This document shows, piece by piece, positions 28,592 through 59,517 of a stretch of DNA of 64,000 nucleotides. The notes under the pieces are model-generated. The model was not told the DNA's origin. It made no database searches and saw only the letters and a program-made list of their open reading frames with translations. Source of the DNA: Bacteroidetes bacterium 41-46 (GTDB lineage Bacteria; Bacteroidota; Bacteroidia; Bacteroidales; UBA932); NCBI GenBank assembly GCA_001897515.1, contig MKTA01000019.1:101726-165725 (forward strand). The letters run 5' to 3'. The translations under genes were made by a program, and so were the position numbers. The first letter of the stretch is position 1. Each line of letters begins with the position of its first letter.

Positions 28592-28643
28592 GGCTCTAAA
28601 TTTGCATATGAAGTCCAAAATTAAGAAATTTGAGATATCTGCA

Positions 28644-40274: not shown

Positions 40275-40304
40275 TGAGTAGTTATTTTTAAAATCACTCT
40301 TGCC

Positions 40305-40355
40305 CAAAATTAGATATTTTATTCTTGGGCTGTATCCATTATGTGTCTATTTTTG
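40305..40355. promoter_or_regulatory. Divergent -7 elements (amidohydrolase / TonB receptor)
   Basis: TAATTTTG on minus (40305-40312) and TATTTTTG on plus (40348-40355); a GCCCAA...TTGGGC inverted repeat overlaps the region. Confidence 0.6.
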
Positions 40356-40383
40356 CGCCTTCGCAACAGAAAAAAACATTTTT

Positions 40384-42399
40384 ATGAACAAACAACAGAA
40401 ACAGAGATCCAGATTATGTTTCAAGAGATGGAAGAGAGCCCCCTGGGCCGCTTTTGCATCTCTGGGCAAGGTAATCAAAATTGGAGTATTAAGCGTAAGT
40501 TGCTCAATACTTGTTCTTAAGAGCCAGCCGATCCTGGCACAGAGTAGTACAAAAACTGAAACTGACACTATCCGAGCTCTTGAGGAGCTTGTCGTTAACA
40601 CAGAACGACCGACGCCATTTCAACCACTTGTTAGGGTTGTGGCAGTAATTCAGCAGGCAGAGATTGAGCGGGCAGCGGTGAACAACCTCCCCGATCTGTT
40701 GCGATATCTCCAGGGGACTGACCTCCGTACACGGGGAGGCGAAGGAGTTCAGTCAGACCTGAACATTCTCGGAGGAACTTTTGACCAGACAATGGTTATG
40801 ATTAACGGGGTCAACTTCACTGACCCGCAAACCGGACACCACTCTCTTAATATTCCGGTTGAAATTTCACAAATTGAGCGAATAGAAATTCTTCACGGAC
40901 CCGGGGCCTGGTCAGAGGGCTCAGTGGCTTATGCCGGAGCAATAAATATCATCACAAAAAATCCGGCTAAAAAGGGACTCTCACTTGCCCTAACCGGAGG
41001 ATCTTTCGGCTATTTCAAGGGCGACGCAAATCTCCAATACGCAAAAAACAGTGGCAAATGGAATCTCTCGGCCCAGGCGGGAGGAGGATATAGCCGGTCG
41101 GACGGATATTCAGATAATACAGACTTTGACATTCTCAATCTTTTTACCAATATTCTAGTAACAAAGGGGAATAAACACAAGATTTATGCTCAGGCAGGTT
41201 ATCAGCATAAGGCGTTTGGGGCAAACAGCTTTTATACAGCTGCATATCCGGAACAATTTGAAGAGACAAGTCTCTACCTTTCATCGTTGCAATATACTTA
41301 TCAAAGTGACAAATGGCAACTTAAAGCGGTTGCATACCACAGAAGACATTTTGACCGGTTTGAACTCTTCAGGAATGAACCTGCATCATGGTATCAGGGT
41401 CACAACTACCATAGAAGCGATATTGCCGGAGCGGACATCCAGGTCGCTCGCCGATGGGGCAAAGCCGGTACTACACTTATTGGAGCGGGTTACCGGTTTG
41501 AAAACATCTACAGCACCGTACTGGGCGACCCAATATTGGGAGAAGGGGTGCACCTCTCTCCGGAGGGGATAGAGTACACCCGACAAAAAAACAGGCATAC
41601 ACCATCGGCATACGCAAAACACATACTTCAGCTGGAGAGATGGAGATTTACTGCGGGTATTCTTGCAGCAGAAGGCATGCGCCTATACGGAGGGGCAAGT
41701 GCAGCATACAGCATCAACCCTTATCTTGAGGCAAATGGCTGGATTAATAACTCTTTCAGGAATCCCACTTTTACAGATCTCTATTATAAAAGCCCCAGCC
41801 AGACTGGAAATATGGAGCTCAAACCTGAGGAGGCTGTTTCTGCTCAGTTGGGGCTGAGATATACAAAATCAGGGCTGAGGGGCTCTCTCTCCGGATTCTA
41901 CAGGTATGGATTCAGTATCATTGACTGGACGAGGGAGAGCGGTTCTGATCAATGGCTGGCGAGTAATATTACAAATGTTATTACTGCCGGATTTGAAGCA
42001 TCATTAATTAAAAACTGGACAAACTCCTTTCTGAATAGTGCGGGGGTGACTTATGCTTTTTTAGATGTTTCCAAAAAAACCGATGGTCTGTTGTCTCTCT
42101 ATGCAACTGATTTTTTAAGGCACAAAGCCACGGCTTTTGCAGATCACAAAATCTTCCTTAATCTCTCAGCAAGATGGGACCTGAGTTTTCAGAAGAGAGA
42201 GGGGACCTGGCTTGGACCTCAGTCCACAGAAGTCCCCTATAAAGCCTTTGCACTTGCAGATGTCAAGCTGGTCTGGACAGAGAGCAAATGGAAAATCTCA
42301 TTAGAGGCAACTAATCTATTCGGTACAGAATACCTGTACCTGGGTAATTTGCCTCAGCCGGGTCGCTGGATAAAGGCCGGGCTGTCGCTGAATCTATAA
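40384..42399 (+). CDS. TonB-dependent receptor (orphan, non-SusC type)
   Basis: TonB-box-like LEELVV; plug LLRYLQG.D...RG...Q.D.NI.GG.FDQT..MINGV...DPQTGHH; barrel ending N.....Y.....PQPGRWI.AG. Confidence 0.93.
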   Translation: MNKQQKQRSRLCFKRWKRAPWAAFASLGKVIKIGVLSVSCSILVLKSQPILAQSSTKTETDTIRALEELVVNTERPTPFQPLVRVVAVIQQAEIERAAVNNLPDLLRYLQGTDLRTRGGEGVQSDLNILGGTFDQTMVMINGVNFTDPQTGHHSLNIPVEISQIERIEILHGPGAWSEGSVAYAGAINIITKNPAKKGLSLALTGGSFGYFKGDANLQYAKNSGKWNLSAQAGGGYSRSDGYSDNTDFDILNLFTNILVTKGNKHKIYAQAGYQHKAFGANSFYTAAYPEQFEETSLYLSSLQYTYQSDKWQLKAVAYHRRHFDRFELFRNEPASWYQGHNYHRSDIAGADIQVARRWGKAGTTLIGAGYRFENIYSTVLGDPILGEGVHLSPEGIEYTRQKNRHTPSAYAKHILQLERWRFTAGILAAEGMRLYGGASAAYSINPYLEANGWINNSFRNPTFTDLYYKSPSQTGNMELKPEEAVSAQLGLRYTKSGLRGSLSGFYRYGFSIIDWTRESGSDQWLASNITNVITAGFEASLIKNWTNSFLNSAGVTYAFLDVSKKTDGLLSLYATDFLRHKATAFADHKIFLNLSARWDLSFQKREGTWLGPQSTEVPYKAFALADVKLVWTESKWKISLEATNLFGTEYLYLGNLPQPGRWIKAGLSLNL

Positions 42400-42491: not shown

Positions 42492-44561
42492 ATGAAAAGT
42501 AAATTATTCACTATGTTAATTTCAACTGCTTTAATTGCCACCTCTTGCGGGGGAGACTCCGCAAAACAGCCGGAAGAGCTAATCACAAAAAGCAATATTA
42601 CAGTTGAAGGGGGAAGACTCACTCCTGAAGTAATGCATAGTATGGGAAAGGTATCAGACCCTCAGGTATCACCAGATGGTTCAAGGATTCTGTACGGAGT
42701 TGCATACACCAGTATTTCTCAAAATAAAAACAACAGGGAACTATTTGTAATGAATGCCGATGGTTCTGATCAGAAACAGCTGACTACCACATCCGGCAGC
42801 GAAAGCAATGCAAGGTGGATAAATAACGGTAATGAGATTGCATACCTTTTAGGCGGACAGATATGGATAATGAAATCTGATGGAAAAGACGCAAAGAAGG
42901 TAAGCAACTACGAGAACGGGATAAACGAATTTGACTTCTCTCCTGACGGGAGTAAAATTATGTTTGTGAGCGATGTTAAGGCGGACAAGAAGGCTGTGGA
43001 TATTTGGCCTGATCTTGACAAAGCAAACGGCAGAATGTACTCATATCTTATGTACAGACACTGGGATCACTTTGTGGAGACTATTCCTCACACCTTTATT
43101 GCTGATTTCGACGGAAAGGGGCTAAGCAATATTACAGATATACTGGAGAATGAGCCTTATGAACTGCCTGTACTGCCTTTTGGCGGTATTGACCAGTTGA
43201 ACTGGAGCCCGGATGGATTGTCAATTGCATACTCCAGCCGAAAACTTACTGGAAAAGAGTACGCTTTTTCAACAAATACAGATATTTACATATACAATAT
43301 TGCAGAAAAAACTCATGAGAACATAACTGACGGAATGCCGGGTTATGACACGGATCCGCTTTTCTCTCCTGATGGTAAAACTATTGCTTGGATATCAATG
43401 GAGAGAGCCGGGTTTGAGGCAGACAAAAAGAGGATCTTCATTATGGATCTTGAAACAAAGGTAAAGACGGAACTCACTACAGATTTTCCGTATAATGCCG
43501 AGTCAATTACATGGCTGGCAGATGGATCCGGTCTATATTTTACTTCTTGTGTAAAGGCTCTTACAGGAGTATACCTTGTAAATCTTGCAGACAGGGAGAT
43601 CAGGCAGGTGGTTCAGGATCAGTTTGATTTTGATGGTGTACAGCTTGCAGGGGATAAACTTGTGGGCACCTACAAAAGCATGTCAATGCCCAATGAAATT
43701 GTCTCTATTAATCCTCTTGATGGAACATATGCTCAACTAACCTTTGAGAATAAGCATCTTCTTGACCAGATAACAATGGGAAGAGTTGAGGAGAGATGGA
43801 TTAAGACAGTTGACAATAAGGATATGCATATGTGGGTTGTCTATCCTCCAGATTTTGACTCTACAAAAGTATATCCTGCATTGCTTTTCTGTCTTGGAGG
43901 ACCACAGGGAACTCTTAGTCAGGGATGGTCATATCGGTGGAACTTCCAGCTTATGGCTGCCAATGATTACATAGTAATTCTTCCAAACAGAAGAGGCACC
44001 ACAGCATTTGGGCAGGAGTGGACAGATCAGATTTCAGGTGACTATCCTGGTCTGAATATGCAGGATTACTTCTCTTCAGTTAAAGAGATGAAAAAAGAGA
44101 AATACGTGGGTAAAGTGGGTGCGGTAGGTGCCAGTTACGGCGGATACTCCGTGTTCTATCTTGCCGGAATTCACAAGGGTATGTTTTCTGCATTTGTTGC
44201 TCATGCAGGCATCTTCAATCAGGAACATATGTATATGACAACAGAGGAGATGTGGTTCCCGCACTGGGATAATGGTGGTGCACCTTGGGATAATAACCCT
44301 GTTGCGAACAGGCATTATGCAAGCTCGCCTCACAAGTTTGTCAAAAACTGGGATACTCCTATTCTTATAACTCACGGAGAACTGGATTACAGAGTTCCTG
44401 TTGATCAGGGAATGGCTGCATTCAATGCTGCTCAGGCACTTGGAGTACCTTCGGAACTGCTCCTCTTTCCGGGGGAGAACCACTGGATACTTAAGCCACA
44501 GAACAGCATACAGTGGAACAGAGTTTATTACGCATGGTTGGATAAATGGTTAAAAAACTAG
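42492..44561 (+). CDS. S9 family peptidase (DPP5-like lipoprotein with PD40 propeller)
   Basis: Lipobox IATSC; PD40 repeats (SPDG); GGPQ; GASYGG nucleophile elbow; DYRV; ENHW. Confidence 0.93.
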   Translation: MKSKLFTMLISTALIATSCGGDSAKQPEELITKSNITVEGGRLTPEVMHSMGKVSDPQVSPDGSRILYGVAYTSISQNKNNRELFVMNADGSDQKQLTTTSGSESNARWINNGNEIAYLLGGQIWIMKSDGKDAKKVSNYENGINEFDFSPDGSKIMFVSDVKADKKAVDIWPDLDKANGRMYSYLMYRHWDHFVETIPHTFIADFDGKGLSNITDILENEPYELPVLPFGGIDQLNWSPDGLSIAYSSRKLTGKEYAFSTNTDIYIYNIAEKTHENITDGMPGYDTDPLFSPDGKTIAWISMERAGFEADKKRIFIMDLETKVKTELTTDFPYNAESITWLADGSGLYFTSCVKALTGVYLVNLADREIRQVVQDQFDFDGVQLAGDKLVGTYKSMSMPNEIVSINPLDGTYAQLTFENKHLLDQITMGRVEERWIKTVDNKDMHMWVVYPPDFDSTKVYPALLFCLGGPQGTLSQGWSYRWNFQLMAANDYIVILPNRRGTTAFGQEWTDQISGDYPGLNMQDYFSSVKEMKKEKYVGKVGAVGASYGGYSVFYLAGIHKGMFSAFVAHAGIFNQEHMYMTTEEMWFPHWDNGGAPWDNNPVANRHYASSPHKFVKNWDTPILITHGELDYRVPVDQGMAAFNAAQALGVPSELLLFPGENHWILKPQNSIQWNRVYYAWLDKWLKN

Positions 44562-44572
44562 TACTAAAAAAC

Positions 44573-47380
44573 ATGAAAAAAATCTTCACACTTGCCTTGG
44601 TTGCAATAACGGTTGTAGCCTATGGCCAAAAGAGGCCACTTGACCACTCTGTTTATGACAATTGGAAAAGTATTGGCAACGTTCAAATTGCCGAGAACGG
44701 AAAGTATTCACTTTTTCAGGTTAATGCACAGGAGGGAGATGGCTATCTTGAGGTGCTCAACATATCTTCCATGCAGAGAGAAAACTTCCCGAGAGGAGGT
44801 TCCGCAAGGATTACACAGGACGGTAATTATGCAGTGTTTACTATAAAACCTCTCTTCTCTCAGACAAAGGAGGCAAGAATTAAAAAGGCAAAGCCAGATC
44901 AGATGCCCAAAGATACACTTGCTGTGTATAATCTGCAGGGCAAAACAATCAAAAGCTTCCCTCATCTAAAGAGTTATAAAATGTCCAGATGGGGAAGTAA
45001 ATATGTTGCATTTCAAACTACTCCTCCCGCTGATACAGCTAAAGGGGCTAAACCTGTAAAGAAAGAGAAGGATGAAGGTGCTGAGTTATTTATCTATCAT
45101 CTTGGAAATGGATATGTTGACACATTAAAATATGTTGCCGAATATGACTTTTCAAGAGGTGGAGATACTCTGTTCTTTGTGGCAAGACCTAACTCAAAGG
45201 ATTCTCTTTTTATTCCAGGCTTATATATGTATAATCCTGCAGAAAAGAGGTCAACGCCAATTTTTCAGACAACTCTCAAGCAGAGTGTTAAACTTCCAAA
45301 TGTTAGCGGAGACAACTCAAGAATTGTGTTTTACGCAAAACTGGATACTACCAAAGAGAAGAAAGATAAACATATCTCTATAATGGAGTACCGGTCCGGC
45401 ATGGAAAAGGCCAGAATTGTTGTTGACAACAGTTCTCCCTTTATTCCGGAAAATATGTTAGTAAGCGAAAACAGACCTTTGCAGTTTAATAAAACTGGGA
45501 ACAGATTGTTTTTTGGCATTGCAAATGTGCTTCCGGAAAAAGACACCACTATTAAAGAGCCCGAAGCAGCAAAACTAGATATCTGGCACTATTCTGAACC
45601 ACATATACAACCAATGCAGTTAAGAAATCTTCAGAGAGAACTTCGCAAGAACTATCTGAGCAAGATTGAGTTGGATGGTGACCCTGCATTTATTCAGATT
45701 GCAAAGGAGGAGTACGAAAATGTAATGATTCCGGACGACTGGTCAGCTGAAAAGGGTATTGCAATAAGTAATTACTATTACCGTCTTCAGTCTCAATGGG
45801 ATGCAAATCCCATCAGGGATCTTTATATTATTGATCTTAATACAGGCAAACCTGAACAAATTGTTAAGGGTGGATATATGAGCTCCTTCTCTGTCTCCCC
45901 TGCAGGCAAGTACTTTGTTTGGTACGATAACAGTAAAGGAGAGTGGTACTCTCTTAACATTTGTGATCAAAAGATTATCCCCTTGACAAAGGGCCTGAGT
46001 GTATCCTTTGCAGACGAACTGCATGACTCCCCTTCAATGGCTTCATCATACGGGTCAGGCGGATGGACGGAAGGAGATAACGCTGTATTTATATATGACA
46101 GATATGATATATGGAAAATTGATCCATCAGGGGTTAAACCGGCAGAGAATTTCACCAATGGTAAAGGTGCCTCTGAAAGAGTAACATTCAGAATTATACG
46201 TACAGACAGAGACTTCAGAGATACTGAACCTTTTGAAGAGAAGGCTGAATATATTTTAACGGCGTTTGATAATAAAACAAAGGCGCACGGATTCTACTCT
46301 AAAGATACAAGGTCACGGAAGCCTGTGCTTAAATTAATGACAACAGAGCCTTTTATGTTTACTTCACTTAAAAGAGGCAAGTCAGGTAAGGAGATGATTT
46401 ATGTTAAGGCCAACTTCACAAATTCACCTGATGTATGGGTATCAAAAGATAATTTTAAAACTCAAACAAAGGTTTCTGATATTAATCCCCAGCAAAAGGA
46501 GTACAACTGGGGAACAGTTGAATTGGTAAGCTGGAAATCCAATAGAGGTACAGAGCTGGAAGGACTTCTTTATAAACCTGAAAATTTTGACCCGTCAAAG
46601 AGATATCCTATGCTTGTATATTTCTATGAAAGAAACTCAGACCTCCTCCACGCTTATCGTGCTCCGGCGCCAAGCAGGTCAACCATCAACATACCATATT
46701 TTGTTAGCAACGAATACATAGTTTTTGTACCCGACATTGCATATGAAGAGGGGCATCCCGGAAAGAGTGCAATTGACTGTATTGTACCCGGCGTAAAAAT
46801 GCTTTGTGATAATGAATGGATAGACAGCGAAAATATTGCAATTCAAGGTCAGAGCTGGGGAGGATATCAAGTTGCTCATATGATTACAAGGCCTGAGACA
46901 TTCAAATGGAAGGCGGCAGGAGCAGGAGCACCTGTCTCAAATATGACAAGTGCATATGGCGGAATAAGATGGGGCTCCGGAATGGTAAGGCAATTCCAGT
47001 ACGAACATACACAGAGTCGTATTGGTAAAACCCTTTGGGAAGCTAGGGATCTCTATATTGAGAACTCTCCTCTATTCTTTGCAGACAAGGTGGAGACTCC
47101 TCTACTTATAATGCATAACGATGAAGATGACGCTGTTCCATGGTACCAGGGAATTGAATATTTTACAGCTTTGAGAAGATTAGGCAAACCAGTATGGATG
47201 CTCCAATATAACAATGAAGTACATAATCTTTCAAAAAGGATTAATGCTAAAGATCTTAGTATCAGGCTAGCTCAGTTCTTTGACCACTACCTTAAAGGTG
47301 CCCCGGCACCGGTGTGGATGAAGCGCGGTGTTCCTGCAACGCTCAAAGGCATTGATTATGGTTATGATTTAACTGAATAA
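44573..47380 (+). CDS. S9 family prolyl oligopeptidase / acylaminoacyl-peptidase-like
   Basis: Sec signal MKKIFTLALVAITVVAYG; YFYERNS; GQSWGG; HND.DDAVPW.QG; E.HN. Confidence 0.92.
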   Translation: MKKIFTLALVAITVVAYGQKRPLDHSVYDNWKSIGNVQIAENGKYSLFQVNAQEGDGYLEVLNISSMQRENFPRGGSARITQDGNYAVFTIKPLFSQTKEARIKKAKPDQMPKDTLAVYNLQGKTIKSFPHLKSYKMSRWGSKYVAFQTTPPADTAKGAKPVKKEKDEGAELFIYHLGNGYVDTLKYVAEYDFSRGGDTLFFVARPNSKDSLFIPGLYMYNPAEKRSTPIFQTTLKQSVKLPNVSGDNSRIVFYAKLDTTKEKKDKHISIMEYRSGMEKARIVVDNSSPFIPENMLVSENRPLQFNKTGNRLFFGIANVLPEKDTTIKEPEAAKLDIWHYSEPHIQPMQLRNLQRELRKNYLSKIELDGDPAFIQIAKEEYENVMIPDDWSAEKGIAISNYYYRLQSQWDANPIRDLYIIDLNTGKPEQIVKGGYMSSFSVSPAGKYFVWYDNSKGEWYSLNICDQKIIPLTKGLSVSFADELHDSPSMASSYGSGGWTEGDNAVFIYDRYDIWKIDPSGVKPAENFTNGKGASERVTFRIIRTDRDFRDTEPFEEKAEYILTAFDNKTKAHGFYSKDTRSRKPVLKLMTTEPFMFTSLKRGKSGKEMIYVKANFTNSPDVWVSKDNFKTQTKVSDINPQQKEYNWGTVELVSWKSNRGTELEGLLYKPENFDPSKRYPMLVYFYERNSDLLHAYRAPAPSRSTINIPYFVSNEYIVFVPDIAYEEGHPGKSAIDCIVPGVKMLCDNEWIDSENIAIQGQSWGGYQVAHMITRPETFKWKAAGAGAPVSNMTSAYGGIRWGSGMVRQFQYEHTQSRIGKTLWEARDLYIENSPLFFADKVETPLLIMHNDEDDAVPWYQGIEYFTALRRLGKPVWMLQYNNEVHNLSKRINAKDLSIRLAQFFDHYLKGAPAPVWMKRGVPATLKGIDYGYDLTE

Positions 47381-47449
47381 TAACAGTTTGTAAAATTTTT
47401 TCGTAAATTTGTGCAGGCGGGAGAATAAATCTCTTGAATCACATTGGAT

Positions 47450-50400
47450 ATGGCCTGCAACAAACTAACAAATATTACAAGACAACTGCGAATAATTGCG
47501 GTTGTCTTGTTCTTCTTTACAGCTTGTAAAGAGAGTAAAGTTGAAGATGAGAAGGTTTCAGCTCCAGAGTCAAAGCAGATAGTTGGAAAAGTAGTTGATA
47601 AAAGTGGCGTAGAGGATCCTGTAACAATTGTGGCGGGGAATCCGTCCAGGTTTTATGCTAAACAACTAAATAAAAGAGTTATACATGAGAATAGCGTCAT
47701 TTCAAATCCACCTGTTAAACTTAATGTAATTTCCACCAATATAAAATATCCTGGCAGAGAGGGTGTCCCCTTGCCAAAGGTAATCCCTGCAAAGATTAAA
47801 AGCGTTATTGCCTACCCACCGGCGAGAGTTACAGCCAAGGACGCATATGTAAGAGACAAGAATCCATACAATTTTAGCTCCATTGCCAAGCTTCAGGGTT
47901 TAAGACATGATCAGATCAGGTCTATTACTGAGGACAGCACGGGCAATTTATGGCTCGGTACCGACGATGGCCTTACAAAATTTGACGGCAGATATTTATA
48001 TCACTATACAAAGGATCAGGGGCTAACAAACAGTCTGATATTAACAGTAAAGTATGACTCAAAGGGTAATATCTGGGCAGGCACATTCAGAGGTGGTGCA
48101 GTTATGTTTGACGGGCGCGAATTTCATATGTTCACAACAGAGGAGGGACTGCCAAGTGATATAGTAAACTGGATTGAGGAGGATAACTCAGGGAATATCT
48201 GGTTTGCAACAGGTGGCGGTATTGTAAAATATGACGGTAAGAACTTGACTGTCTATACTCAGGAAAACGGACTTTGCGATAATGACACAAGATACCTTAT
48301 TACTGACAAATATGGCAAACTATGGGTATCCTCAAACCTGGGTGGAATCTCTTGTTTTAACGGAGAGAGTTTTACAAATTACACAAAAGAGGAGGGTTTG
48401 CCTCAGAATGAGGTCACATCGCTTTATGAGGATACAAGGGGAGACATCTGGATGGGTCTCTCTACAATGGGAATTTTGAAATATGATGGATATTTCTTCT
48501 TTCATTACTCCAAACAGTCTGGACTAACTGACGGTGGAGTAAGAAGCATATTGGAGGACTACAAAGGTAATATCTGGATAGGCTCAACAACCTCCGGACT
48601 TTTCAAGTTTGACGGAAAAAGATTTACAAATTACAATTTAAATGAGGGGTTGGGGTCTGACTATGTAAGGTGCCTGCACGAGGACAGATCGGGAAATCTG
48701 TGGATAGGCACAAGAACTGCAGGATTAGTTAGGTATAAAGGCGATGTATTTACGCATCTGACAGCTGATGACGGACTGAGCAACAGCAGGGTAATGAGTA
48801 TTCACAGAGCTCTTAATGGTTCGGTGTGGCTGGGCACTTTCGGAGGATACGTAACCATTATAGATAATCCAAAAGATATTAACGGAGGGGGAACACTATC
48901 TCTATTTGGTCCGGACCAAGGTTTAACAAGCTCAAGAGTTTATAGTCTTTTTGAGGAAGAGAACGGCAACATGTGGATGGGTACAGATGGAGGAGGAGTA
49001 GTAATATATGATGGTACATATACATATACATACACCACAAAGGAGGGTCTGTGCGATAACACTATAAGAGATATCGCAAGGGGGAACAATGGAGATATCT
49101 GGATTGGCACTTACGGTGGAGGGGCATCAAAGTACGATGGTAAAAGCTTTACAAACTTTTCAGTAAAGAGTGGGCTTAGCGGTAACAATATTATGGCAAT
49201 TTATACCGATAGGAATGGATTGGTGTGGTTGGGGAGTGATGGAGGGGGAGTATCAACTTATAATGGAAGTGAATTTACACACTATACAACAAAAGAGGGG
49301 TTCTTCAGCAATATTGTAAACAGTATAACTGAAGACAAAGATGGCAATATCTGGTTTGGTACCGGAGGAGAGGGGTTGGTTAGGTTTGATGGCAAATATT
49401 TTACAAGATACGGAGTTAAGGAGGGATTGAATAATGACTATGTGATGTCTATTTTAATAGATTCATCAGGAGTAATCTGGGCAGGAAGCAGGTATGGAAT
49501 AAACAAAATAACAAAGGACTCTTCTCTTTCCGGTTACAAAATCAGAAGTTACAATTACGAGGATGGATTTATTGGGATGGGATGTAACCTTGGATCAATT
49601 GAGGATTTACCTGATGGAAATATTCTGACCGGAACAAATGACAGATTGACTAGATTTCATGGTGATAAGGAGATTCAAAAGAGTGCACCTTTCACTTTGC
49701 ATCTGACAAATCTGATGATTTTCAATGAAGAGATTCCCTGGACATACATTTTCACCAACAGAGACTCCATTTTTCAATTGAATAATGGTCTTAAATTGAA
49801 AAACATAAATCTATCAGATATTTCAAAATGGAATAATATACCTCTTGACCTTGAACTTCCACACAAACTTAACTATATAACATTCAAATATATTGCAGTT
49901 GCACAAGATGAAATAGATAAAGTGCGTTACGAGTATAAACTTGAAGGACTTGATTTAAATTGGCATAAAACATCCGCCATTACAGAAATTCCTTATGTTA
50001 ATCTATCGCCCGGGAACTACACCTTCAAAGTCAGGGCGCAATCAAGCGAAGGTGTGTTAAGCAATGAGGTCTCCTATAAATTCAGAATTAAACCGCCTTG
50101 GTGGCAAACGGTTTGGTTTTATTTGATTTTATCTATCGGAGCCATTACCATTATTTACCTATTCATTAAAAATAGGGAGAGGGCCTTAAGGGTTGACAAA
50201 GAGCTATTGCAGAAGAAGGTAGAAGAGCAAACAGAAGAGCTATTGTTAAAAAACAATGAGCTAGAGGTTCTGAACGAAGAAAAAGATAAATTATTCTCAA
50301 TTATTGCTCATGACCTAAGAGGACCTTTTAGCTCTTTTCTTGGACTTACACAGATTATGTCAGAAGACCTGACATCCTTTACACAGGAGGAGATTAAATC

Positions 50401-50965
50401 CTTTGCAGATAATATGAATAAATCTGCCAAAAATCTTTACGACTTATTGGAAAATCTACTGCACTGGTCCAGAATGCAAAGACAAGCTATTCCATTTAAT
50501 CCTACCGAGATTGCACTAAGGAATTCTATAATTGACTGCCTTGGCTGGGTTTTAGACTCTGCTAAAAAGAAGGGTGTAAACTTTACTGTTGATATTCCTG
50601 AAACGATGAAAGTTGAGGCAGATGAAAGCATGATTCAAACTGTGATAAGGAATATTGCCAGCAACTCCGTAAAATTCACTCCCAAAGGTGGAGATATAAA
50701 TTTAACAGCAGAATTAATAAGCGACAACGAAATTGAAATTAGGATAAAGGATAATGGCATTGGCATGGATAAAGAGATCCAGGGTAATATCTTCAAAGTT
50801 GGCAATAAGGGTGGAAGAAGTGGCACAGAGGGCGAGCCGAGTACCGGACTTGGCCTAATGATTTGCAAAGATTTGGTGGATCAGCATAAAGGCACAATAA
50901 TTGTTGAAAGCGCACCTATGGCAGGATCTCAATTTATTATCAGAATGCCTGTAAAACAGAGATAA
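47450..50965 (+). CDS. Sensor histidine kinase with 14 Reg_prop repeats, Y_Y_Y, TM, HisKA and HATPase domains
   Basis: 14 GL..N.V..I.ED..GN.W.GT repeats counted by eye; Y.YKLEG.D..W; KPPWWQT + TM; SIIAHDLRGP H-box; N, D and G boxes intact. Confidence 0.93.
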   Translation: MACNKLTNITRQLRIIAVVLFFFTACKESKVEDEKVSAPESKQIVGKVVDKSGVEDPVTIVAGNPSRFYAKQLNKRVIHENSVISNPPVKLNVISTNIKYPGREGVPLPKVIPAKIKSVIAYPPARVTAKDAYVRDKNPYNFSSIAKLQGLRHDQIRSITEDSTGNLWLGTDDGLTKFDGRYLYHYTKDQGLTNSLILTVKYDSKGNIWAGTFRGGAVMFDGREFHMFTTEEGLPSDIVNWIEEDNSGNIWFATGGGIVKYDGKNLTVYTQENGLCDNDTRYLITDKYGKLWVSSNLGGISCFNGESFTNYTKEEGLPQNEVTSLYEDTRGDIWMGLSTMGILKYDGYFFFHYSKQSGLTDGGVRSILEDYKGNIWIGSTTSGLFKFDGKRFTNYNLNEGLGSDYVRCLHEDRSGNLWIGTRTAGLVRYKGDVFTHLTADDGLSNSRVMSIHRALNGSVWLGTFGGYVTIIDNPKDINGGGTLSLFGPDQGLTSSRVYSLFEEENGNMWMGTDGGGVVIYDGTYTYTYTTKEGLCDNTIRDIARGNNGDIWIGTYGGGASKYDGKSFTNFSVKSGLSGNNIMAIYTDRNGLVWLGSDGGGVSTYNGSEFTHYTTKEGFFSNIVNSITEDKDGNIWFGTGGEGLVRFDGKYFTRYGVKEGLNNDYVMSILIDSSGVIWAGSRYGINKITKDSSLSGYKIRSYNYEDGFIGMGCNLGSIEDLPDGNILTGTNDRLTRFHGDKEIQKSAPFTLHLTNLMIFNEEIPWTYIFTNRDSIFQLNNGLKLKNINLSDISKWNNIPLDLELPHKLNYITFKYIAVAQDEIDKVRYEYKLEGLDLNWHKTSAITEIPYVNLSPGNYTFKVRAQSSEGVLSNEVSYKFRIKPPWWQTVWFYLILSIGAITIIYLFIKNRERALRVDKELLQKKVEEQTEELLLKNNELEVLNEEKDKLFSIIAHDLRGPFSSFLGLTQIMSEDLTSFTQEEIKSFADNMNKSAKNLYDLLENLLHWSRMQRQAIPFNPTEIALRNSIIDCLGWVLDSAKKKGVNFTVDIPETMKVEADESMIQTVIRNIASNSVKFTPKGGDINLTAELISDNEIEIRIKDNGIGMDKEIQGNIFKVGNKGGRSGTEGEPSTGLGLMICKDLVDQHKGTIIVESAPMAGSQFIIRMPVKQR

Positions 50966-50974
50966 ACAAGCTTG

Positions 50975-53900
50975 ATGAAGGCCTGGAGGGCATATATTAT
51001 ACTATTTACTTTAATTACCCTTATCTCTTGTAGAAGAGATGAAGAGGTTGTTGATGCTCGTATATTTCCGCCAATTATTAAAGCTAGCGGATATGTAGTA
51101 CCCGGAGACTCAATAAAGTTGCCTGACACTTTAAAAATAAAGTCAAAAGGAGGATATCAGGCAAAACTGACCTCTCCCGTTCCAATTAAAACAAACCAGA
51201 GTATTATACCGGTCTCCCTTAAAATGAGCAAACTGGTGACCACTCCCAGAAGGATTGGAACAGGAGAGTACAGAGAACCAAAAGTGGTAGAATTTACAGA
51301 ACAATCAACAATAGTTGGCTCTCCTAAACAGGTACTTGTTAAAGAACCACTTTACAAAGAGATTAACCCTGGAAGCTTCTTTTACTTTAATAAAATGCAG
51401 GGGCTTCTGCATGATCAGATCAGAGCCTTAGCTCAAGACTCAATAGGGAATATTTGGATTGGTACAGATAACGGACTCAGCAGATACGATGGAAAACACT
51501 ATTATCATTACACTTCTAATCAAGGTCTTGCAAACAATCTGATAAATTATCTTTTCATTGATTCTAAGAAAAACATATGGATAAGCACATATGAAGAGGG
51601 GGTTACAAAATTTGACGGAACCAGCTTCACTAAAATCTCATCTCAGGATGGGTTACCCCATGACCTTGTAAACTGCATCTTTGAAGACCGTTACAACAGA
51701 ATTTGGTTTGGTACAAGAAGGGGTTTAGTGATGTATGAAAAGGGTAAACTTACAATATTCACAACAGAGTCAGGTCTCTCCGCAAATGATGTAAGATCAA
51801 TAATTGATGACAATTCAGGACGGATGTGGATTGCAACATATGGTGGCGGTATCTCAATTTACGACGGGGAAACATTTTCACTGTTTACTACAAAGGAGGG
51901 CCTAGTTCAGGACCACATTTCAATGCTTTTTAAGGATAGCCATAATAACATTTGGATTAGCACTGCATTCATGGGGCTGATTAAGTACGATGGCAGAGCT
52001 TTAACATCATATACAACAAGAGAGGGGTTAGGGAACAACTCTATAAGAAGCATACTTGAAGACAGGGATGGTAATATGTGGTTTGGAAACTCTAACGGCA
52101 ACATCACCCGTTTTGACGGTACAGCTATGAGAGTTTACGGGAAAAACGACGGGTTGGTTGCAGAGGCTATGAGAAGCTCTCTACAGGATATGAATGGTAA
52201 CCTATGGTTTGGCACAAGGGGAGCAGGCTTGGTAAGATTTGAGGGAAGGCTTTTCTCTCACTACACAGAACAGGAGGGTCTCTCCAGCTCAAGAATAACC
52301 TCAATAAATGAAGACCACAGCGGAAATTTATGGATAAGTACCTTTGGCGGTTTTGTCAATATTCTTTCAGAAGGAATTTCTAATGGGATTAAGAGGCAAT
52401 ATATTAGAGTTTTTGGTCCAGAGGCTGGTTTAACAGGAAGATTTATTTTCAATACAACAACCGACTATCAGGGGAGATTGTGGATTTCAACCGATAATCA
52501 GGGACTTCTTATGTATGACGGGGCACGAACTTATATATATGACGAATCAGGTGGTTTGCCGGATAAAACCATTGTTCAGGTTGACAAGGATAATGAGGGT
52601 AATATATGGTTCTCATCTATGAGATCGGGTATCTCTAAAATAATAGGAGAAACCATTATTACCTTTGGCACCCAAAATGGTATAAGCCACAACCATGTAA
52701 GATGCTTTCTTCAGGACAGCAGATCAAATATTTGGTTTGGCACAGCCGGAGGAGGTTTGACAAAATATGACGGAAAGAGCTACACCCATTTTAATAAAAA
52801 ACACGGCTTCTTCACAGATACAATAAACGATATTCTTGAAGACAACAGAGGTATAATTTGGTTTGCCAGTGGAGGCAATGGACTTATAAGGTATGACGGA
52901 GACACCTTTATAAGATATTCAGAAGAGAGTGGTCTAAAGAGTAAGGTTTTAATGAGTCTGATTCAGGATAAGAAGGGTAGCATCTGGATCGGGACAAGAT
53001 TTGGCCTACATGAGATAAAGCAAAGAGTCCATGAATCAATAGATAGTCTTAATAGAGGAATCTCAATTAACAGCTTCGGAATTGAGCAGGGGTTTATGGG
53101 GATGGAGTGCAGAAAGGAGTCCTTATTTGAGGCATCCGACGGAACAATCTGGATAGGGACAGAGGACCGTCTGACTGCATACCACGGTGGCAGTTCTATT
53201 GAGAGAGACATATTACCCTCTCTGCAGATTACAAAGGTTCAACTATTTAATGAAGATGTTGACTGGAGTGACATTTATAACAACCCCGATTCAATCTACA
53301 CTCTAAACAACGGAATAAAACTAAAAGGTGTAAAGTTAAGCGGAGTAACAGACTGGTATCTTTTACCAAAAGATTTAACCTTGAAGAGAGGGACGAACTA
53401 CATCTCATTTAATTTTATTGCAACCACACATTCACAAACAAAAAGTATTAAGTACCAGTATATGCTTGAGGGGTTGGATAAAGGTTGGAGTTCTCCTACT
53501 GAAAGGACAGAGGCATCATACGGACATTTAAACAGTGGCAGATATACTTTAAGGGTTAAGTCAGTAACAAGTGAGGGGCTGGAGAGTAAAGAGACAACAT
53601 TTTCCTTTAGGATTAGGCAGTCATGGTGGGAAACTTCCTGGTTCCATTTAACCATACTTCTGTTTACCGGATTTTTATTGTATAGGATATACAGATTAAA
53701 AATCAAAGATTTATTAGCTGAGCGCAGGGGACTTGTTTATAAATTAGAGGAGAAAAATACTGATTTTGAAAGAAGCAGAGAGTCAATAGAGAGACTCTCA
53801 AAAGAGCGTGAAAAGATATTTTCAATAATCTCTCAAGATCTAAAAGGTCCCATTAGCAAAATGATTGGATCATCAAAGAACGCCTCATCATTAAATGATC

Positions 53901-54427
53901 TGCTTGACAACCTTTTAATGTGGTCTGCAATCCAACAGGGTAAGATCATCTTCTCTCCTGAAAGCTCTAATATCACAGATATTATTAACCAAAAATTAGA
54001 CTCGTTACTTCAGCAAGCTAAAGAGAAGGAGATTTCAATTATTAATAAGATTCCTCGCAAACTCGACATTGAAGCAGACCCCAGATTGCTCAAAAACATA
54101 CTTGGAAACCTTATTTCAAATGCTATTAAATTTACATCCAGAGGCGGAGACATCCTAATTAAAGCAGACTCAAGCTCCCCTGATGAGATAAAAATTATAA
54201 TAGAGGATAATGGTATCGGTATGAATCAAGATATAATTAACTCTCTTTTTGAATTGAATGTTGAAACGGGGCGGACAGGTACTGAAGGAGAGCCAAGTAC
54301 CGGGCTTGGTCTTCTGATTAGTAAAAATTTAATTGAGATCCACTCTGGTAAGATTGAGATATTTTCTGAGATAAAAAAAGGGAGCCGGGTTATAGTCACT
54401 CTCCCTAAGACTCAGCCGGGAATCTGA
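50975..54427 (+). CDS. Paralogous propeller sensor pseudo-histidine kinase (H-box His replaced by Gln)
   Basis: Same architecture as the upstream gene; H-box reads SIISQDLKGP (CAA at 53834-53836); NLISNAIKFT, EDNGIGM and GEPSTGLGL intact; reading frame uninterrupted. Confidence 0.88.
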   Translation: MKAWRAYIILFTLITLISCRRDEEVVDARIFPPIIKASGYVVPGDSIKLPDTLKIKSKGGYQAKLTSPVPIKTNQSIIPVSLKMSKLVTTPRRIGTGEYREPKVVEFTEQSTIVGSPKQVLVKEPLYKEINPGSFFYFNKMQGLLHDQIRALAQDSIGNIWIGTDNGLSRYDGKHYYHYTSNQGLANNLINYLFIDSKKNIWISTYEEGVTKFDGTSFTKISSQDGLPHDLVNCIFEDRYNRIWFGTRRGLVMYEKGKLTIFTTESGLSANDVRSIIDDNSGRMWIATYGGGISIYDGETFSLFTTKEGLVQDHISMLFKDSHNNIWISTAFMGLIKYDGRALTSYTTREGLGNNSIRSILEDRDGNMWFGNSNGNITRFDGTAMRVYGKNDGLVAEAMRSSLQDMNGNLWFGTRGAGLVRFEGRLFSHYTEQEGLSSSRITSINEDHSGNLWISTFGGFVNILSEGISNGIKRQYIRVFGPEAGLTGRFIFNTTTDYQGRLWISTDNQGLLMYDGARTYIYDESGGLPDKTIVQVDKDNEGNIWFSSMRSGISKIIGETIITFGTQNGISHNHVRCFLQDSRSNIWFGTAGGGLTKYDGKSYTHFNKKHGFFTDTINDILEDNRGIIWFASGGNGLIRYDGDTFIRYSEESGLKSKVLMSLIQDKKGSIWIGTRFGLHEIKQRVHESIDSLNRGISINSFGIEQGFMGMECRKESLFEASDGTIWIGTEDRLTAYHGGSSIERDILPSLQITKVQLFNEDVDWSDIYNNPDSIYTLNNGIKLKGVKLSGVTDWYLLPKDLTLKRGTNYISFNFIATTHSQTKSIKYQYMLEGLDKGWSSPTERTEASYGHLNSGRYTLRVKSVTSEGLESKETTFSFRIRQSWWETSWFHLTILLFTGFLLYRIYRLKIKDLLAERRGLVYKLEEKNTDFERSRESIERLSKEREKIFSIISQDLKGPISKMIGSSKNASSLNDLLDNLLMWSAIQQGKIIFSPESSNITDIINQKLDSLLQQAKEKEISIINKIPRKLDIEADPRLLKNILGNLISNAIKFTSRGGDILIKADSSSPDEIKIIIEDNGIGMNQDIINSLFELNVETGRTGTEGEPSTGLGLLISKNLIEIHSGKIEIFSEIKKGSRVIVTLPKTQPGI

Positions 54428-55181
54428 TAAACAAAGATAATTGTCCTCTGTCTTCTGAAACTGATGCCCCAATTTTACCTGTAAACAAAGATTCAAATCC
54501 CGACTTTACTCTCTCCAGATCAGACAGTGATCTAAAAATTATTTCTGCATAACATACTGCGCCATCTCTCTCAACCATCCACACACTATAGTCCCCAATG
54601 GCATTAAAAATATGCATGTAGCCTGATAGCGAACTGGATAGAGCAATTGGTCCAACTGCGTATTTAACTGCATCTGAAACCCGCTCTTTCGACAGTAAAA
54701 AATTCAAAATACCATTTGGGATATTGATCGTTGCACTTGATTTAAATATATCTATGTAATGGTTAGCCAAAGCTCTGCTATTTTCAGCACTTCCAGCGGA
54801 TCTCTCCTCAGAAACAACAGATATATACAGATTGCCTGATACAGACTGATACTGCCCTGGAGAACTACAGTCAGGCATCATGTACTCATCAGCAGGTCTG
54901 CATTTAAAAGTATGCTGAGAGTATATTCCGAATGCACTCTCTGCAGAGCTCATTTTATAAACCTCAATAGAGTATAAAGAGCCTTTATAGCTTACATCGT
55001 AGGCATTTAGTATCTCAAATCCATACTCAAGATAAAGCTCACTACCCCCATTCATGAATCCGTAGAGAGCCTCACCGACGAAGGCTCTCTCTCTTTTAAC
55101 AGTTATCTCAGATTCATTTATAGTCTGACCATATATGAACGATACAATTACAGAGGCTAGAATTGTCAACAAAAACCTCAT
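54405..55181 (-). CDS. DUF6599-like exported protein
   Basis: Sec signal; LYGFMNGGSELYLEYGF...IEVYKM....AFGIYS pattern. Confidence 0.65.
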   Translation of the reverse strand: MRFLLTILASVIVSFIYGQTINESEITVKRERAFVGEALYGFMNGGSELYLEYGFEILNAYDVSYKGSLYSIEVYKMSSAESAFGIYSQHTFKCRPADEYMMPDCSSPGQYQSVSGNLYISVVSEERSAGSAENSRALANHYIDIFKSSATINIPNGILNFLLSKERVSDAVKYAVGPIALSSSLSGYMHIFNAIGDYSVWMVERDGAVCYAEIIFRSLSDLERVKSGFESLFTGKIGASVSEDRGQLSLFIRFPAES

Positions 55182-56332
55182 AGCCTTATCTCTTTAAGGT
55201 CAATATTCTCCCTTTTTCCTACACCTAGCTTCAGCTCTTCTGCCATATCAATAAATCTTGAAGCCTCCGGCCTATCAACCTTCTGAATCCCCTCCTCAAT
55301 TCTCTTTGCAATAATTACATCGTGCCCAACTCTATCAACAGCTACCGGATCAGATCCAACTATCAGCATATTGTAATTACATATAAACTGAGGTTTAGCG
55401 GATGGCCCGCCATCAAAACAGCCAATTAACCCGTCTGCTATGTTTAGAACCACCTTGTCCCTTAAGGGTGGAAAAGCACACACATATGCACATGTCTCAT
55501 GCCATAGACTAGAATGTAACCGGCTAGTATTTGTAATTGACCCAAAAGCCAGATTTTTAAGGCATAAAGTTGTTGTAGGCCCTGCATTTTTTAATATTGG
55601 CAGGTTAATAATTTTAGTAACTCTCTCTGTAACAATTTTTGTAAAATAGGAGTCCTTACCCTCGTTAACCATATACGGGATGGTGTAAGAGTCGTATTTA
55701 CCATCTATATCTGCAAAGAATCTCTGAGACTTATCAACTCTGCCCTCAGAATAGAGCCTTCCCTGAGTGTCATAAAAGCCGCCTTTCTCATCCATACACT
55801 CAGTCCCCACAATCTCTATCCCCGGGTAATTCTCTTTTGTATAACCTGTTTCATGGAGCTGCATCTCTCTTCTGTCCCAAATAACAATATTCTCTTTAGG
55901 AATACCCGACTCTTCCAGCTGCCTTATAACAGCCTTGGTTACAGCATGTGAAGTAGTTAATAATCTTCCTGCGACAGGATTAACCTTTAGCCCGATTACA
56001 TCTTTTGGAGAGACAAACTTTCTCCAGGCCTTTTTAATGCTCCTAGCACCGGTAAGGGAGAGCATACTCGTCTTAAGCATTTCGTAAGCAGCCTCCTCTG
56101 AAGGAGTGCCCTCTACGACAGACCTCTCATTTGTCACTTTTACCACTTTACCGGGATAGAGGCCCGGCATTGAACTTTTAATGCGTGGAACTGACACTGC
56201 TTCGGAGATATTTGTCTCCGGTTTCTCAGGAGCAATAAACAGAGATGTCTTCTCTGCAGCTTTTACAACAGGTGCAAACGCAATCCCGGCCCCTCCAATT
56301 GAGAGATACCTAAAGAAGTCTCTTCTTTTCAT
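55178..56332 (-). CDS. DUF362 domain protein with Tat signal
   Basis: MKRRDFF twin-arginine signal; VIGLKVNP, IINLPILKNA...TLCLKNL.FG, GSDPVAVD. Confidence 0.85.
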   Translation of the reverse strand: MKRRDFFRYLSIGGAGIAFAPVVKAAEKTSLFIAPEKPETNISEAVSVPRIKSSMPGLYPGKVVKVTNERSVVEGTPSEEAAYEMLKTSMLSLTGARSIKKAWRKFVSPKDVIGLKVNPVAGRLLTTSHAVTKAVIRQLEESGIPKENIVIWDRREMQLHETGYTKENYPGIEIVGTECMDEKGGFYDTQGRLYSEGRVDKSQRFFADIDGKYDSYTIPYMVNEGKDSYFTKIVTERVTKIINLPILKNAGPTTTLCLKNLAFGSITNTSRLHSSLWHETCAYVCAFPPLRDKVVLNIADGLIGCFDGGPSAKPQFICNYNMLIVGSDPVAVDRVGHDVIIAKRIEEGIQKVDRPEASRFIDMAEELKLGVGKRENIDLKEIRL

Positions 56333-58947: not shown

Positions 58948-59087
58948 TAGGTTCATTATTGCCGCAAAGATAAGAAAACAGATTTCCAGAATCATACATT
59001 TTCTTTCCAGAATAATTCAAACTACAAACAGATTAATTCAAACAGTAAATCAATGCGATTGTGTTATGTATTTTAGAGCTAAAAAAA

Positions 59088-59438
59088 ATGGACAGAAAAT
59101 GCAGAGAGTGCGACAGAGTTGTATTTGGAAGAGTGGACAAGATTTTTTGCAGTGATGAGTGCAGAAATGCATATAACAATGCTCGCGAGAGAGAGAGAAA
59201 ACATGAGACAATTGAAATTGATAGAATTCTTAAGAAAAATTTAAGAATACTTAAAGAGCTTACCGCCGGAGGATATAAAAGGGTGGCTCAGGAAACCCTC
59301 TCCTCAATGGGTTTTGATTTCAGATATATCACATCAGTAAAATTTTCAAAAGGGGGTAAAATTCTGATGCAATGCTACAATTACTCATATGTAAACTCCT
59401 CAAAAGGAATAGTTTACATTAGAGAAAAAAATAATTGA
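59088..59438 (+). CDS. Zinc-ribbon-containing hypothetical protein (DUF2116-like)
   Basis: CxxC...GR.DK.FCSD.CRN.YNN, then I.RIL.KN.RIL and GFDF.Y.T. Confidence 0.75.
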   Translation: MDRKCRECDRVVFGRVDKIFCSDECRNAYNNARERERKHETIEIDRILKKNLRILKELTAGGYKRVAQETLSSMGFDFRYITSVKFSKGGKILMQCYNYSYVNSSKGIVYIREKNN

Positions 59439-59517
59439 TTTTGAATGAAAATATTATATACATTTGAGGCATAAAATAAAGCTAAACTCAGGATATAACA
59501 ATTTAAAATTCAATACA

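Follow-up and report, generated by a model that had tools for sequence, protein, structure and literature searches.

A 64,000-nucleotide stretch of the genome of the Bacteroidales organism Bacteroidetes bacterium 41-46 (contig MKTA01000019.1, positions 101,726 to 165,725; the whole stretch is hereafter the window) carries two adjacent genes for propeller-type membrane sensors, which we call copy 1 and copy 2. Copy 1 (47450-50965, + strand; ATG at 47450, TAA at 50963-50965) encodes a kinase of 1171 aa and is followed, on the same strand and after a gap of 9 nt, by copy 2 (50975-54427; ATG at 50975, stop codon at 54425-54427), which encodes a kinase-like protein of 1150 aa. The two proteins align end to end at 38% identity in BLASTP, and the sole large gap is one of 23 residues in copy 2's domain for dimerisation and histidine phosphotransfer (DHp). 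Both begin with a lipoprotein signal ending in Cys and continue through 14 propeller blades, a Y_Y_Y domain, one transmembrane helix and the DHp domain to a catalytic and ATP-binding (CA) domain. Pfam matched Reg_prop, Y_Y_Y and HATPase_c in both copies (HATPase_c E-values of 8e-23 and 5e-26 for the two) and HisKA in copy 1 only; blade motifs numbered 14 in copy 2 and 12 strict plus two degenerate in copy 1. In Foldseek, the periplasmic part resembles the periplasmic domains of BT3049 and BT4663 (template-modelling score 0.74-0.77 over about 800 columns), with sequence matches to hybrid two-component system (HTCS) sensors at 8e-50, and the cytoplasmic part resembles HK853 and its relatives. 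The original prediction for this DNA had described tandem paralogues 9 nt apart with the same architecture and 14 blades, a description that coordinates, Pfam, blade motifs, AlphaFold2 and Foldseek all bear out.

Copy 1 reads as a canonical orphan sensor histidine kinase and is predicted to be competent for phosphotransfer. Its parts comprise a lipoprotein signal (Cys26), two seven-bladed propellers, the Y_Y_Y domain, the transmembrane helix, a HisKA-type DHp domain and HATPase_c. The codon of His954 (CAT, 50309-50311, + strand) lies where it had been predicted, within the Pfam HisKA match at residues 945-1011, and its product is the phospho-acceptor by homology: copy 1 aligns without gaps to HK853, and His954 sits on H260. 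The DHp domain (50267-50479, + strand, residues ~940-1010) is full length, with 51 residues from the His to a conserved Trp, and is the best-conserved region of copy 1, at an identity of 0.92 and a ratio of non-synonymous to synonymous substitution rates (dN/dS) of 0.01-0.04; its H-box KLFSIIAHDLRGPF is invariant in all orthologues. The CA domain, delimited by Pfam (50621-50956, + strand, residues 1058-1169), has invariant N, G1 and G2 boxes. This complete HisKA outfit, together with the most constrained DHp, would fit a protein that homodimerises, autophosphorylates and docks a specific regulator.

Copy 2 is a pseudo-histidine kinase: it has the architecture of copy 1, lacks the acceptor His and carries a truncated DHp. 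The two elements of a class I HisKA kinase can be compared directly, since a DHp with an H-box phospho-acceptor is present in copy 1 and missing from copy 2, and a HATPase_c domain with N, G1 and G2 boxes is recognisable in both. At the acceptor position copy 2 has Gln954 (CAA, 53834-53836, + strand), as do its close relative L017 and every variant of its protein cluster, and because His954 is Gln copy 2 is predicted to be incapable of autophosphorylation at the canonical site. Among 92 full-length homologues aligned for statistics on the His, the spacing and the ATP boxes, 89 retain the acceptor His and 86 have the 51-residue distance between the His and the Trp of helix 2; deviant spacings (27, 28 or 31) occur only in members of the copy 2 clade. 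The predicted loss of about 23 aa is thus found both as the single BLASTP gap and as a deviant spacing, and it leaves the DHp of copy 2 shorter by 23 aa than the family norm. The junction of this in-frame deletion lies at 53867-53881 (+ strand, residues G965-N969), in the hairpin turn GSSKN, and Pfam found no HisKA match in copy 2. An alternative acceptor within copy 2 was ruled out, the linker plus DHp between transmembrane helix and CA domain being free of His throughout.

For HK853-RR468 it is established that the regulator docks on this hairpin surface of the DHp. The HK853 positions named for rewiring in the title of PDB entry 4JAS (268, 271, 275, 294 and 297) correspond to H+8, H+11, H+15, H+34 and H+37. 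The copy 2 deletion, from about H+12 to H+34/38, removes the hairpin tip and two or three of these five specificity positions, namely the equivalents of T275, V294 and possibly D297. By analogy with HK853, copy 2 would therefore have lost most of its regulator-docking surface, the lower half of the DHp.

What copy 2 retains is equally distinctive. Its periplasmic sensor (51362-53614, + strand), with 14 blades in two propellers and the Y_Y_Y Ig-like domain, is the best-conserved part of the protein. The transmembrane helix (53630-53698, + strand, residues ~886-908; WWETSWFHLTILLFTGFLLYRIY) lies inside a modelled helix at 888-930, and the CA domain (54077-54412, + strand) has intact N, G1 and G2 boxes. 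As predicted, the nucleotide-binding boxes of copy 2 are intact: N1045, N1049, D1078, G1080, G1082, G1110 and G1112 are invariant in 92 of 92 homologues, copy 2 included. The copy 2 clade also keeps an invariant set of residues in the upper DHp and H-box context (E944, K947, S950, I952, D955, N979, W983, S984, I986 and Q988). The AlphaFold2 monomer of copy 2 has a mean predicted local distance difference test score (pLDDT) of 85.6, rising above 90 in the sensor, and contains 56 strands that form 14 four-stranded blades over residues 135-736, followed by the Ig-like domain, a long transmembrane and linker helix, a short helical hairpin and the CA domain. The hairpin is modelled, at low confidence, as a helix at 957-965, a turn at 966-969 and a helix at 970-987. 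For each copy the monomer model is confident in the sensor and the CA domain but gives the DHp a pLDDT of 36-63, so that neither hairpin geometry nor dimer compatibility is judged from the monomers, and the models do not discriminate between the explanations weighed below.

Ahead of the first propeller, both proteins also carry a beta-rich region roughly 100 residues long (47552-47850 and 51035-51360, residues ~35-130), modelled with pLDDT of about 75-94 and bearing a family-wide GYxVPxDS motif. It precedes the stretch that matches solved HTCS sensor domains by sequence, the best of which starts at residue 131.

The features of copy 2 recur in independent data. An identical copy 2 protein is encoded on 16 contigs from independent runs, copy 1 adjoins copy 2 on every one of these that reaches far enough upstream, one contig with the protein is 824 kb long, and contigs of four runs are identical over 53600-54100, the interval holding the CAA codon and the deletion. 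Assembly error as the source of either is thus refuted. All 12 full-length variants in the 90% cluster of copy 2 are 1150 aa long and read SIISQDLKGPISKMIGSSK (SIISQDLKGP), and the open frame noted earlier is accordingly unbroken in each of them. The stretch is present in 20 DNA runs from 13 studies, mostly of bioreactors, wastewater, sludge and anaerobic digesters.

Relatives were collected from a search with the copy 2 protein, contig look-ups of its matches and two collection scans, and are numbered as orthologous loci (L-numbers); scans with the alignment of the copy 2 clade added seven of these loci, four on genome contigs and three on metagenome contigs. Together they represent one chromosomal locus in about ten distinct lineages, each of uncultured Bacteroidales, with the gene order S9 peptidase, S9 peptidase, kinase(s), followed by the convergent DUF6599 and DUF362 genes, cysS and ssb. 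The tandem pair is found in most lineages, with gaps of 7-24 nt, and pairing is kept in all but one. In a neighbour-joining tree the first genes form one clade and the second genes another, with mirror-image topologies, which indicates that the pair is old and co-inherited and did not arise by recent duplication. The most distant paired relative is L028, whose two genes each encode a full DHp with the canonical H-box KLFSIIAHDLRGPF, and at L026 a single canonical kinase on the copy 2 side occupies the locus; for these two reasons the ancestral state was likely a pair of canonical kinases. The two genes are accordingly an ancient, co-diverging tandem pair that probably descends from two canonical kinases.

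The second gene has degenerated repeatedly since. It combines Gln (CAA) with the 23-aa hairpin deletion in the window and L017, Asn (AAT) with a 20-aa hairpin deletion in L001/L007, and Asn (AAT) with a full-length hairpin in L006/L008. His is present with a full-length hairpin in L004/L010 and with a 24-aa deletion of different boundaries in L002/L013/L014 and in L005/L009; L003, where copy 1 is absent, has His and a full-length hairpin. The expectation that copy 2 orthologues lack the His thus holds for the three of seven lineages with Gln or Asn, and four of seven keep the residue, two of them with an independent hairpin deletion. CAA and AAT each lie one step from CAY and two steps from each other, which implies that the His was lost at least twice in the copy 2 clade (to Gln and to Asn); the hairpin, too, was deleted at least twice. 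A copy 1 origin by gene conversion was considered for the H-box of copy 2 in L004/L010 and rejected, because outside the H-box the DHp there is orthologous to that of L008 copy 2. The unit of interest is, on this evidence, a clade with a recurrently degenerating DHp and not a single His-to-Gln event.

These losses have always hit copy 2 and never copy 1, and they occur only where copy 1 is present; the solitary copy 2-type gene of L003 keeps both His and hairpin. We consider it moderately probable that copy 2 is an accessory pseudokinase co-sensor that acts through copy 1.

A rival reading would make copy 2 a phosphatase-only sensor that dephosphorylates the regulator of copy 1, the two forming a two-input push-pull switch. 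HisKA kinases often do not need their acceptor His to act as phosphatases, the H-box of copy 2 retains its D955 context, and the L008 form, with Asn and a full-length hairpin, could still dock a regulator. The window form fits this role poorly, however, as its deletion takes the T275, V294 and possibly D297 equivalents, and the conserved Thr/Asn of the phosphatase motif, at H+4, is Gly in both copies; we regard the idea as distinctly improbable.

Selection was quantified as dN/dS by the Nei-Gojobori method, with neutrality assessed by a binomial test. Because dS is saturated between the window and L001 or L004, only dN is usable there, and conclusions rest on the closer pairs (window versus L017, L004 versus L010, L002 versus L005/L009 and L006 versus L008). 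The window and L017 (dS 0.36) both carry the Gln and the deletion, so their divergence post-dates the loss. Between them dN/dS is 0.058 for copy 1 and 0.074 for copy 2 over the whole protein, 0.030 and 0.049 over the sensor, 0.043 and 0.098 over linker plus DHp, and 0.150 and 0.138 over the CA domain. Neutral evolution of copy 2 is rejected overall (p = 1e-75), in the DHp (p = 6e-7) and in the CA domain (p = 4e-8). The proposal that His-less orthologues stay paired and under purifying selection is thereby upheld, the Gln and Asn lineages being paired with copy 1 and post-loss dN/dS being 0.07.

The relaxation of copy 2 appears to be local to its DHp. Over linker plus DHp, dN/dS of copy 1 and copy 2 is 0.010 versus 0.153 in L004/L010, 0.032 versus 0.190 in L002/L005 and 0.030 versus 0.190 in L002/L009, and the DHp ranges are 0.15-0.30 for copy 2 and 0.01-0.04 for copy 1; between the window and L001, where dN is the usable measure, linker plus DHp gives 0.16 for copy 1 and 0.54 for copy 2. 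A sliding identity profile over six paired lineages gives the same picture, with an identity of 0.17-0.39 across copy 2 residues 896-993 and 0.56-0.92 at the corresponding place in copy 1. The first propeller of copy 2 (0.88-0.94) exceeds that of copy 1, and the CA domains are alike. The DHp is thus the least and the propellers the most conserved part of copy 2; what selection maintains is the sensor, the upper DHp, which touches the CA domain, and all the residues that bind ATP.

A gene that has lost its acceptor His, suffered an internal deletion, accelerated in its DHp and slipped below detection by the HisKA profile might be taken for a decaying duplicate, or its Gln and deletion for assembly errors. 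We regard these explanations as refuted, with next to no probability left to them. The frame of 1150 codons is unbroken in every strain; dN/dS after the loss is 0.074, and the values of 0.098 in the DHp and 0.138 in the CA domain are far below 1. Copy 2 diverges as little as copy 1 (66 versus 67%, 68 versus 67% and 90 versus 90% identity for the two copies in the same species pairs). The sequence agrees across the 16 contigs and four runs, and RNA-derived contigs cover the gene. Copy 2 accordingly shows none of the marks of decay, be it dN/dS near 1, frame disruptions or patchy retention; it combines a kinase fold without its acceptor element (His954Gln and the 23-aa DHp deletion) with purifying selection and an intact frame in all strains.

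Neither protein carries an output domain of its own. The Pfam scan found Response_reg (PF00072) and AraC (PF12833) in neither copy; both proteins stop right after HATPase_c, and true hybrids recovered by the same protein search are about 1470-1480 aa long. Receiver and AraC domains were sought further with phmmer, using the tails of hybrid homologues, and with a hidden Markov model (HMM) built from those tails. The tail HMM detected no receiver domain in the 64-kb window (best E = 0.95) or in 286 kb from 16 orthologous loci. As a positive control, it detected receivers in three unrelated loci at E 1e-11 to 1e-41, and since nothing was found while the control worked, no hidden regulator lies nearby. 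Pfam found no transcription factor among the 40 other open reading frames (ORFs) of the window, which comprise housekeeping genes and many peptidases. The earlier observation that the pair has no fused receiver or AraC domain and no regulator in the window therefore stands, and the pair appears to be an orphan in every lineage examined. Many kinases lack an adjacent regulator, and orphan status is by itself no evidence of a new output.

Copy 2 could also act independently of copy 1, either as a scaffold or reverse signaller of the DivL type or as an ATP-dependent sensor with another partner or substrate, adjacency then reflecting shared regulation. DivL, a His-less kinase fold repurposed as a binding module (PMC4211667), is indeed among the structural matches; the variable DHp of copy 2 speaks against a conserved partner surface there, and the copy 2 type stands alone in L003. 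Set against this are the 7-24 nt gaps and strict co-divergence with copy 1 in all but one lineage, and orthologous loci hold no conserved nearby partner gene other than copy 1. Moreover, the solitary L003 protein keeps its His and full hairpin, which suggests that loss is tolerated only with copy 1 present. We judge independent action rather improbable.

Under the preferred reading, that of copy 2 as a co-sensor acting through copy 1, the locus is a vertically co-inherited and probably co-transcribed pair of orphan membrane sensors in an uncultured Bacteroidales bacterium of anaerobic digesters and wastewater. Both proteins present an HTCS-type double-propeller plus Y_Y_Y sensor on a classical kinase core without receiver or AraC domain. 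Copy 1 would signal to a response regulator encoded elsewhere, and copy 2 would hetero-oligomerise with copy 1 in the membrane, via the sensor domains, the transmembrane helices or the upper DHp, and adjust the kinase/phosphatase output of copy 1. One regulator would thereby integrate two periplasmic inputs. In this scheme the physical interaction of copy 1 with copy 2, the direction of copy 2's effect, its use of ATP and the ligands are all presumed.

The retained ATP site raises a stronger version of this partnership, an obligate DHp heterodimer, along one of the lines offered in the original prediction, in which the ATP-loaded CA domain of copy 2 would phosphorylate His954 of copy 1 in trans and output would require, or be gated by, the binding of a ligand to the sensor of copy 2. 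It is attractive because the ATP-binding motifs of copy 2 have been kept, all of them invariant, and its CA domain has remained as constrained as that of copy 1 since the His was lost (0.138 versus 0.150). Such constraint suggests that copy 2 still uses ATP, and the only nearby acceptor would be the His of copy 1. The upper DHp is also where the copies are most alike (about 55% versus 38% overall in the BLASTP alignment). Precedents exist in FasB/FasC, where one partner is proposed to contribute a kinase domain and the other the His (PMC12675982), and in GacS, which autophosphorylates in trans (PMC8498467). On the other side, the CA domain of copy 1 is fully intact, so no donor is needed; the DHp of copy 2 is hypervariable and truncated in three different ways beside a nearly invariant copy 1 DHp; and the hairpins of the two copies differ by 23 residues. 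We therefore consider the mechanism unlikely. The pseudokinase reading of copy 2 is well supported; the heterodimer mechanism is a plausible proposal.

Stated for the pair as a whole, the locus might encode an obligate heteromeric two-input sensor, in which copy 2 would contribute an additional ligand sensor plus a CA domain loaded with ATP, and the sole acceptor His and the sole regulator-docking surface would belong to copy 1. We consider this, too, unlikely; if true, two periplasmic signals would be combined by a logical function into the phosphorylation state of a single regulator.

Several points weigh against an accessory role of copy 2 acting through copy 1. Contact between the proteins is presumed from adjacency and co-divergence. 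A hypervariable copy 2 DHp (0.17-0.39) beside a near-invariant copy 1 DHp (0.92) mildly disfavours a tight, co-evolving heterodimeric four-helix bundle, and with a DHp pLDDT of 36-63 both monomer models are silent on dimer compatibility. A role that is allosteric only, or that of a scaffold, would not call for full conservation of the ATP motifs; RocA, for one, has a degenerate and dispensable CA domain (PMC7028121). The paired copy 2 of L004/L010 remains apparently canonical, which shows that pairing as such needs no pseudokinase. Finally, the RNA evidence consists of assembled metatranscriptome contigs, for which DNA carry-over is possible.

Those contigs cover both genes at a depth of 3-10, against 25-60 for the first peptidase gene, and one RNA-derived contig (50755-51001) bridges the junction, from before the copy 1 stop codon to beyond the copy 2 start codon, as would be expected of a bicistronic transcript. 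The motif TAnnTTTG marks Bacteroidota promoters. An octamer matching this -7 consensus, TAAATTTG (47404-47411, + strand), lies 46 nt upstream of the copy 1 ATG; in each of the eight lineages checked the same octamer stands 27-71 nt upstream of the first kinase gene, and in four of these directly after a terminator hairpin 3' of the second S9 peptidase gene. It is likely the promoter that the two genes share. The 9 nt that separate copy 2 from copy 1 leave no room for a TAnnTTTG-type motif. A sigma-70 scan returned 46 sites against 41 expected and is uninformative, as the Bacteroidota consensus differs.

A candidate RNA element (47476-47533, + strand) lies within the signal-peptide codons of copy 1, from 27 nt after the ATG. 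It comprises a hairpin of 15-16 bp with stem ACAAGACAACTGCG...CGGTTGTCTTGT, a U-rich tract and a second hairpin of 8 bp, and the segment folds at -28.6 kcal/mol. The element is conserved in six loci from four lineages with saturated synonymous sites, where three pairs vary from A-U to G-U type and two have changed on both sides in a compensatory way; the L002/L009 clade lacks the element. Its role may be that of an attenuator or translation-control element for the kinase pair.

Directly 5' of copy 1 lie the two S9-family serine peptidase genes assigned by Pfam (689 and 944 aa; 42492-47380, + strand), which overlap each other by 16 nt. They hold this position in every lineage, including single-kinase ones at 42-47% identity, and because they are constant upstream of the kinase(s) this arrangement suggests that the sensors are functionally tied to peptide or protein degradation. 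A TonB-dependent receptor gene precedes them (40300-42399 in the window) in some lineages only. Downstream, the convergent DUF6599 and DUF362 genes occupy 54405-56332 on the - strand, and the last 23 nt of the DUF6599 gene coincide with the 3' end of copy 2 (54405-54427). The overlap is also found in L001, L002 and L017 and is absent in L026 and L028, where the second or single kinase is canonical; in L003, DUF6599 and DUF362 are missing together with copy 1. Farther on, two ORFs without a Pfam match (125 and 315 aa; 59061-60411, + strand) lie upstream of an M3 peptidase gene. Their position is conserved in all orthologous loci, whose gene calls give lengths of about 116 and 297-315 aa. The window as a whole is unusually rich in peptidases (two M23 at 749-2682, M24 at 19965-20729, M19 at 27524-28618, M20 at 39183-40307, the two S9 and M3 at 60420-62534), interspersed with housekeeping genes such as alaS, lptF/G, tgt, secY, ribosomal protein genes, cysS and ssb. 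Metagenomes that contain the source organism are mostly of digesters, sludge and wastewater, in keeping with a proteolytic way of life.

Among characterised proteins, the closest in architecture are the HTCS sensors BT4663 (PDB 4A2L/4A2M) and BT3049 (3V9F), which share the double seven-bladed Reg_prop propeller with Y_Y_Y, the single transmembrane helix and HisKA/HATPase_c. The pair has the double-propeller and Y_Y_Y periplasmic sensor of an HTCS and lacks the receiver and AraC-type helix-turn-helix domains fused to the kinase, and for this reason it falls outside that family. It differs further in being a tandem, one member of which has no acceptor His, and in lying beside two S9 peptidase genes with no link to a polysaccharide utilisation locus.

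Kinase-like partners of true kinases offer the nearest functional parallels. RocA of group A Streptococcus is a kinase-like membrane protein that binds and modulates CovS without needing autophosphorylation (PMC7028121, PMC6635533), and the role predicted for copy 2, that of a kinase-fold membrane protein accessory to a true sensor kinase, is of the same kind. RocA, however, keeps a dispensable His, has a degenerate and dispensable CA domain and a six-helix transmembrane sensor, and is unlinked to covS (PMC7028121), whereas copy 2 lacks the His, keeps its CA motifs intact, has a large sensor of high conservation and is encoded beside its presumed partner. FasB and FasC, also of group A Streptococcus, are kinase-like proteins of adjacent genes for which there is evidence of heteromer formation, and the kinase domain of one and the His of the other are proposed to share the work (PMC12675982). 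They have in common with our pair the arrangement of two adjacent kinase-like genes, but the Fas locus encodes its regulator FasA, both Fas proteins keep a candidate His and the sensors are unrelated.

In the RetS-GacS system of Pseudomonas aeruginosa, a direct DHp-DHp heteromeric interface blocks trans-autophosphorylation (PMC8498467); these are unlinked hybrid kinases with receiver domains, RetS keeps its His and the system shows nothing like the truncated hairpin. In Caulobacter crescentus, DivL (PDB 4Q20) is a HisKA/HATPase_c fold without acceptor His that serves as a repurposed signalling module (PMC4211667). It resembles copy 2 as a His-less fold kept by selection, and is among both the sequence and the structural matches of copy 2. 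DivL, a cytoplasmic protein with PAS domains, carries Tyr where the His would be and binds a phosphorylated regulator via an intact DHp; in copy 2 the regulator-docking half of the DHp is deleted. None of RocA, FasB/FasC, RetS-GacS and DivL combines a deleted hairpin and missing His with an intact ATP site and a large conserved sensor, nor does any show recurrent parallel loss within one clade. Full-text literature searches found no description of a propeller-sensor pseudokinase pair.

To our knowledge, only a handful of kinase-pseudokinase partnerships are known in bacteria, each discovered through genetics in a pathogen or model organism. To these the locus described here would add an example from environmental Bacteroidales whose sensor is a propeller of the HTCS type. 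The copy 2 clade holds all four intermediates, with and without the His and with full or truncated hairpins, and so forms a natural series from kinase to pseudokinase in which the sensor and ATP domains stay constrained and the partner kinase is unchanged. Such a series isolates the features for which a kinase fold stays under selection after it has lost phosphotransfer, and its variants are ready material for studying heteromerisation, trans-phosphorylation and tolerance of DHp length. If the pair works as one unit, it would represent a compact design for a two-input sensor.

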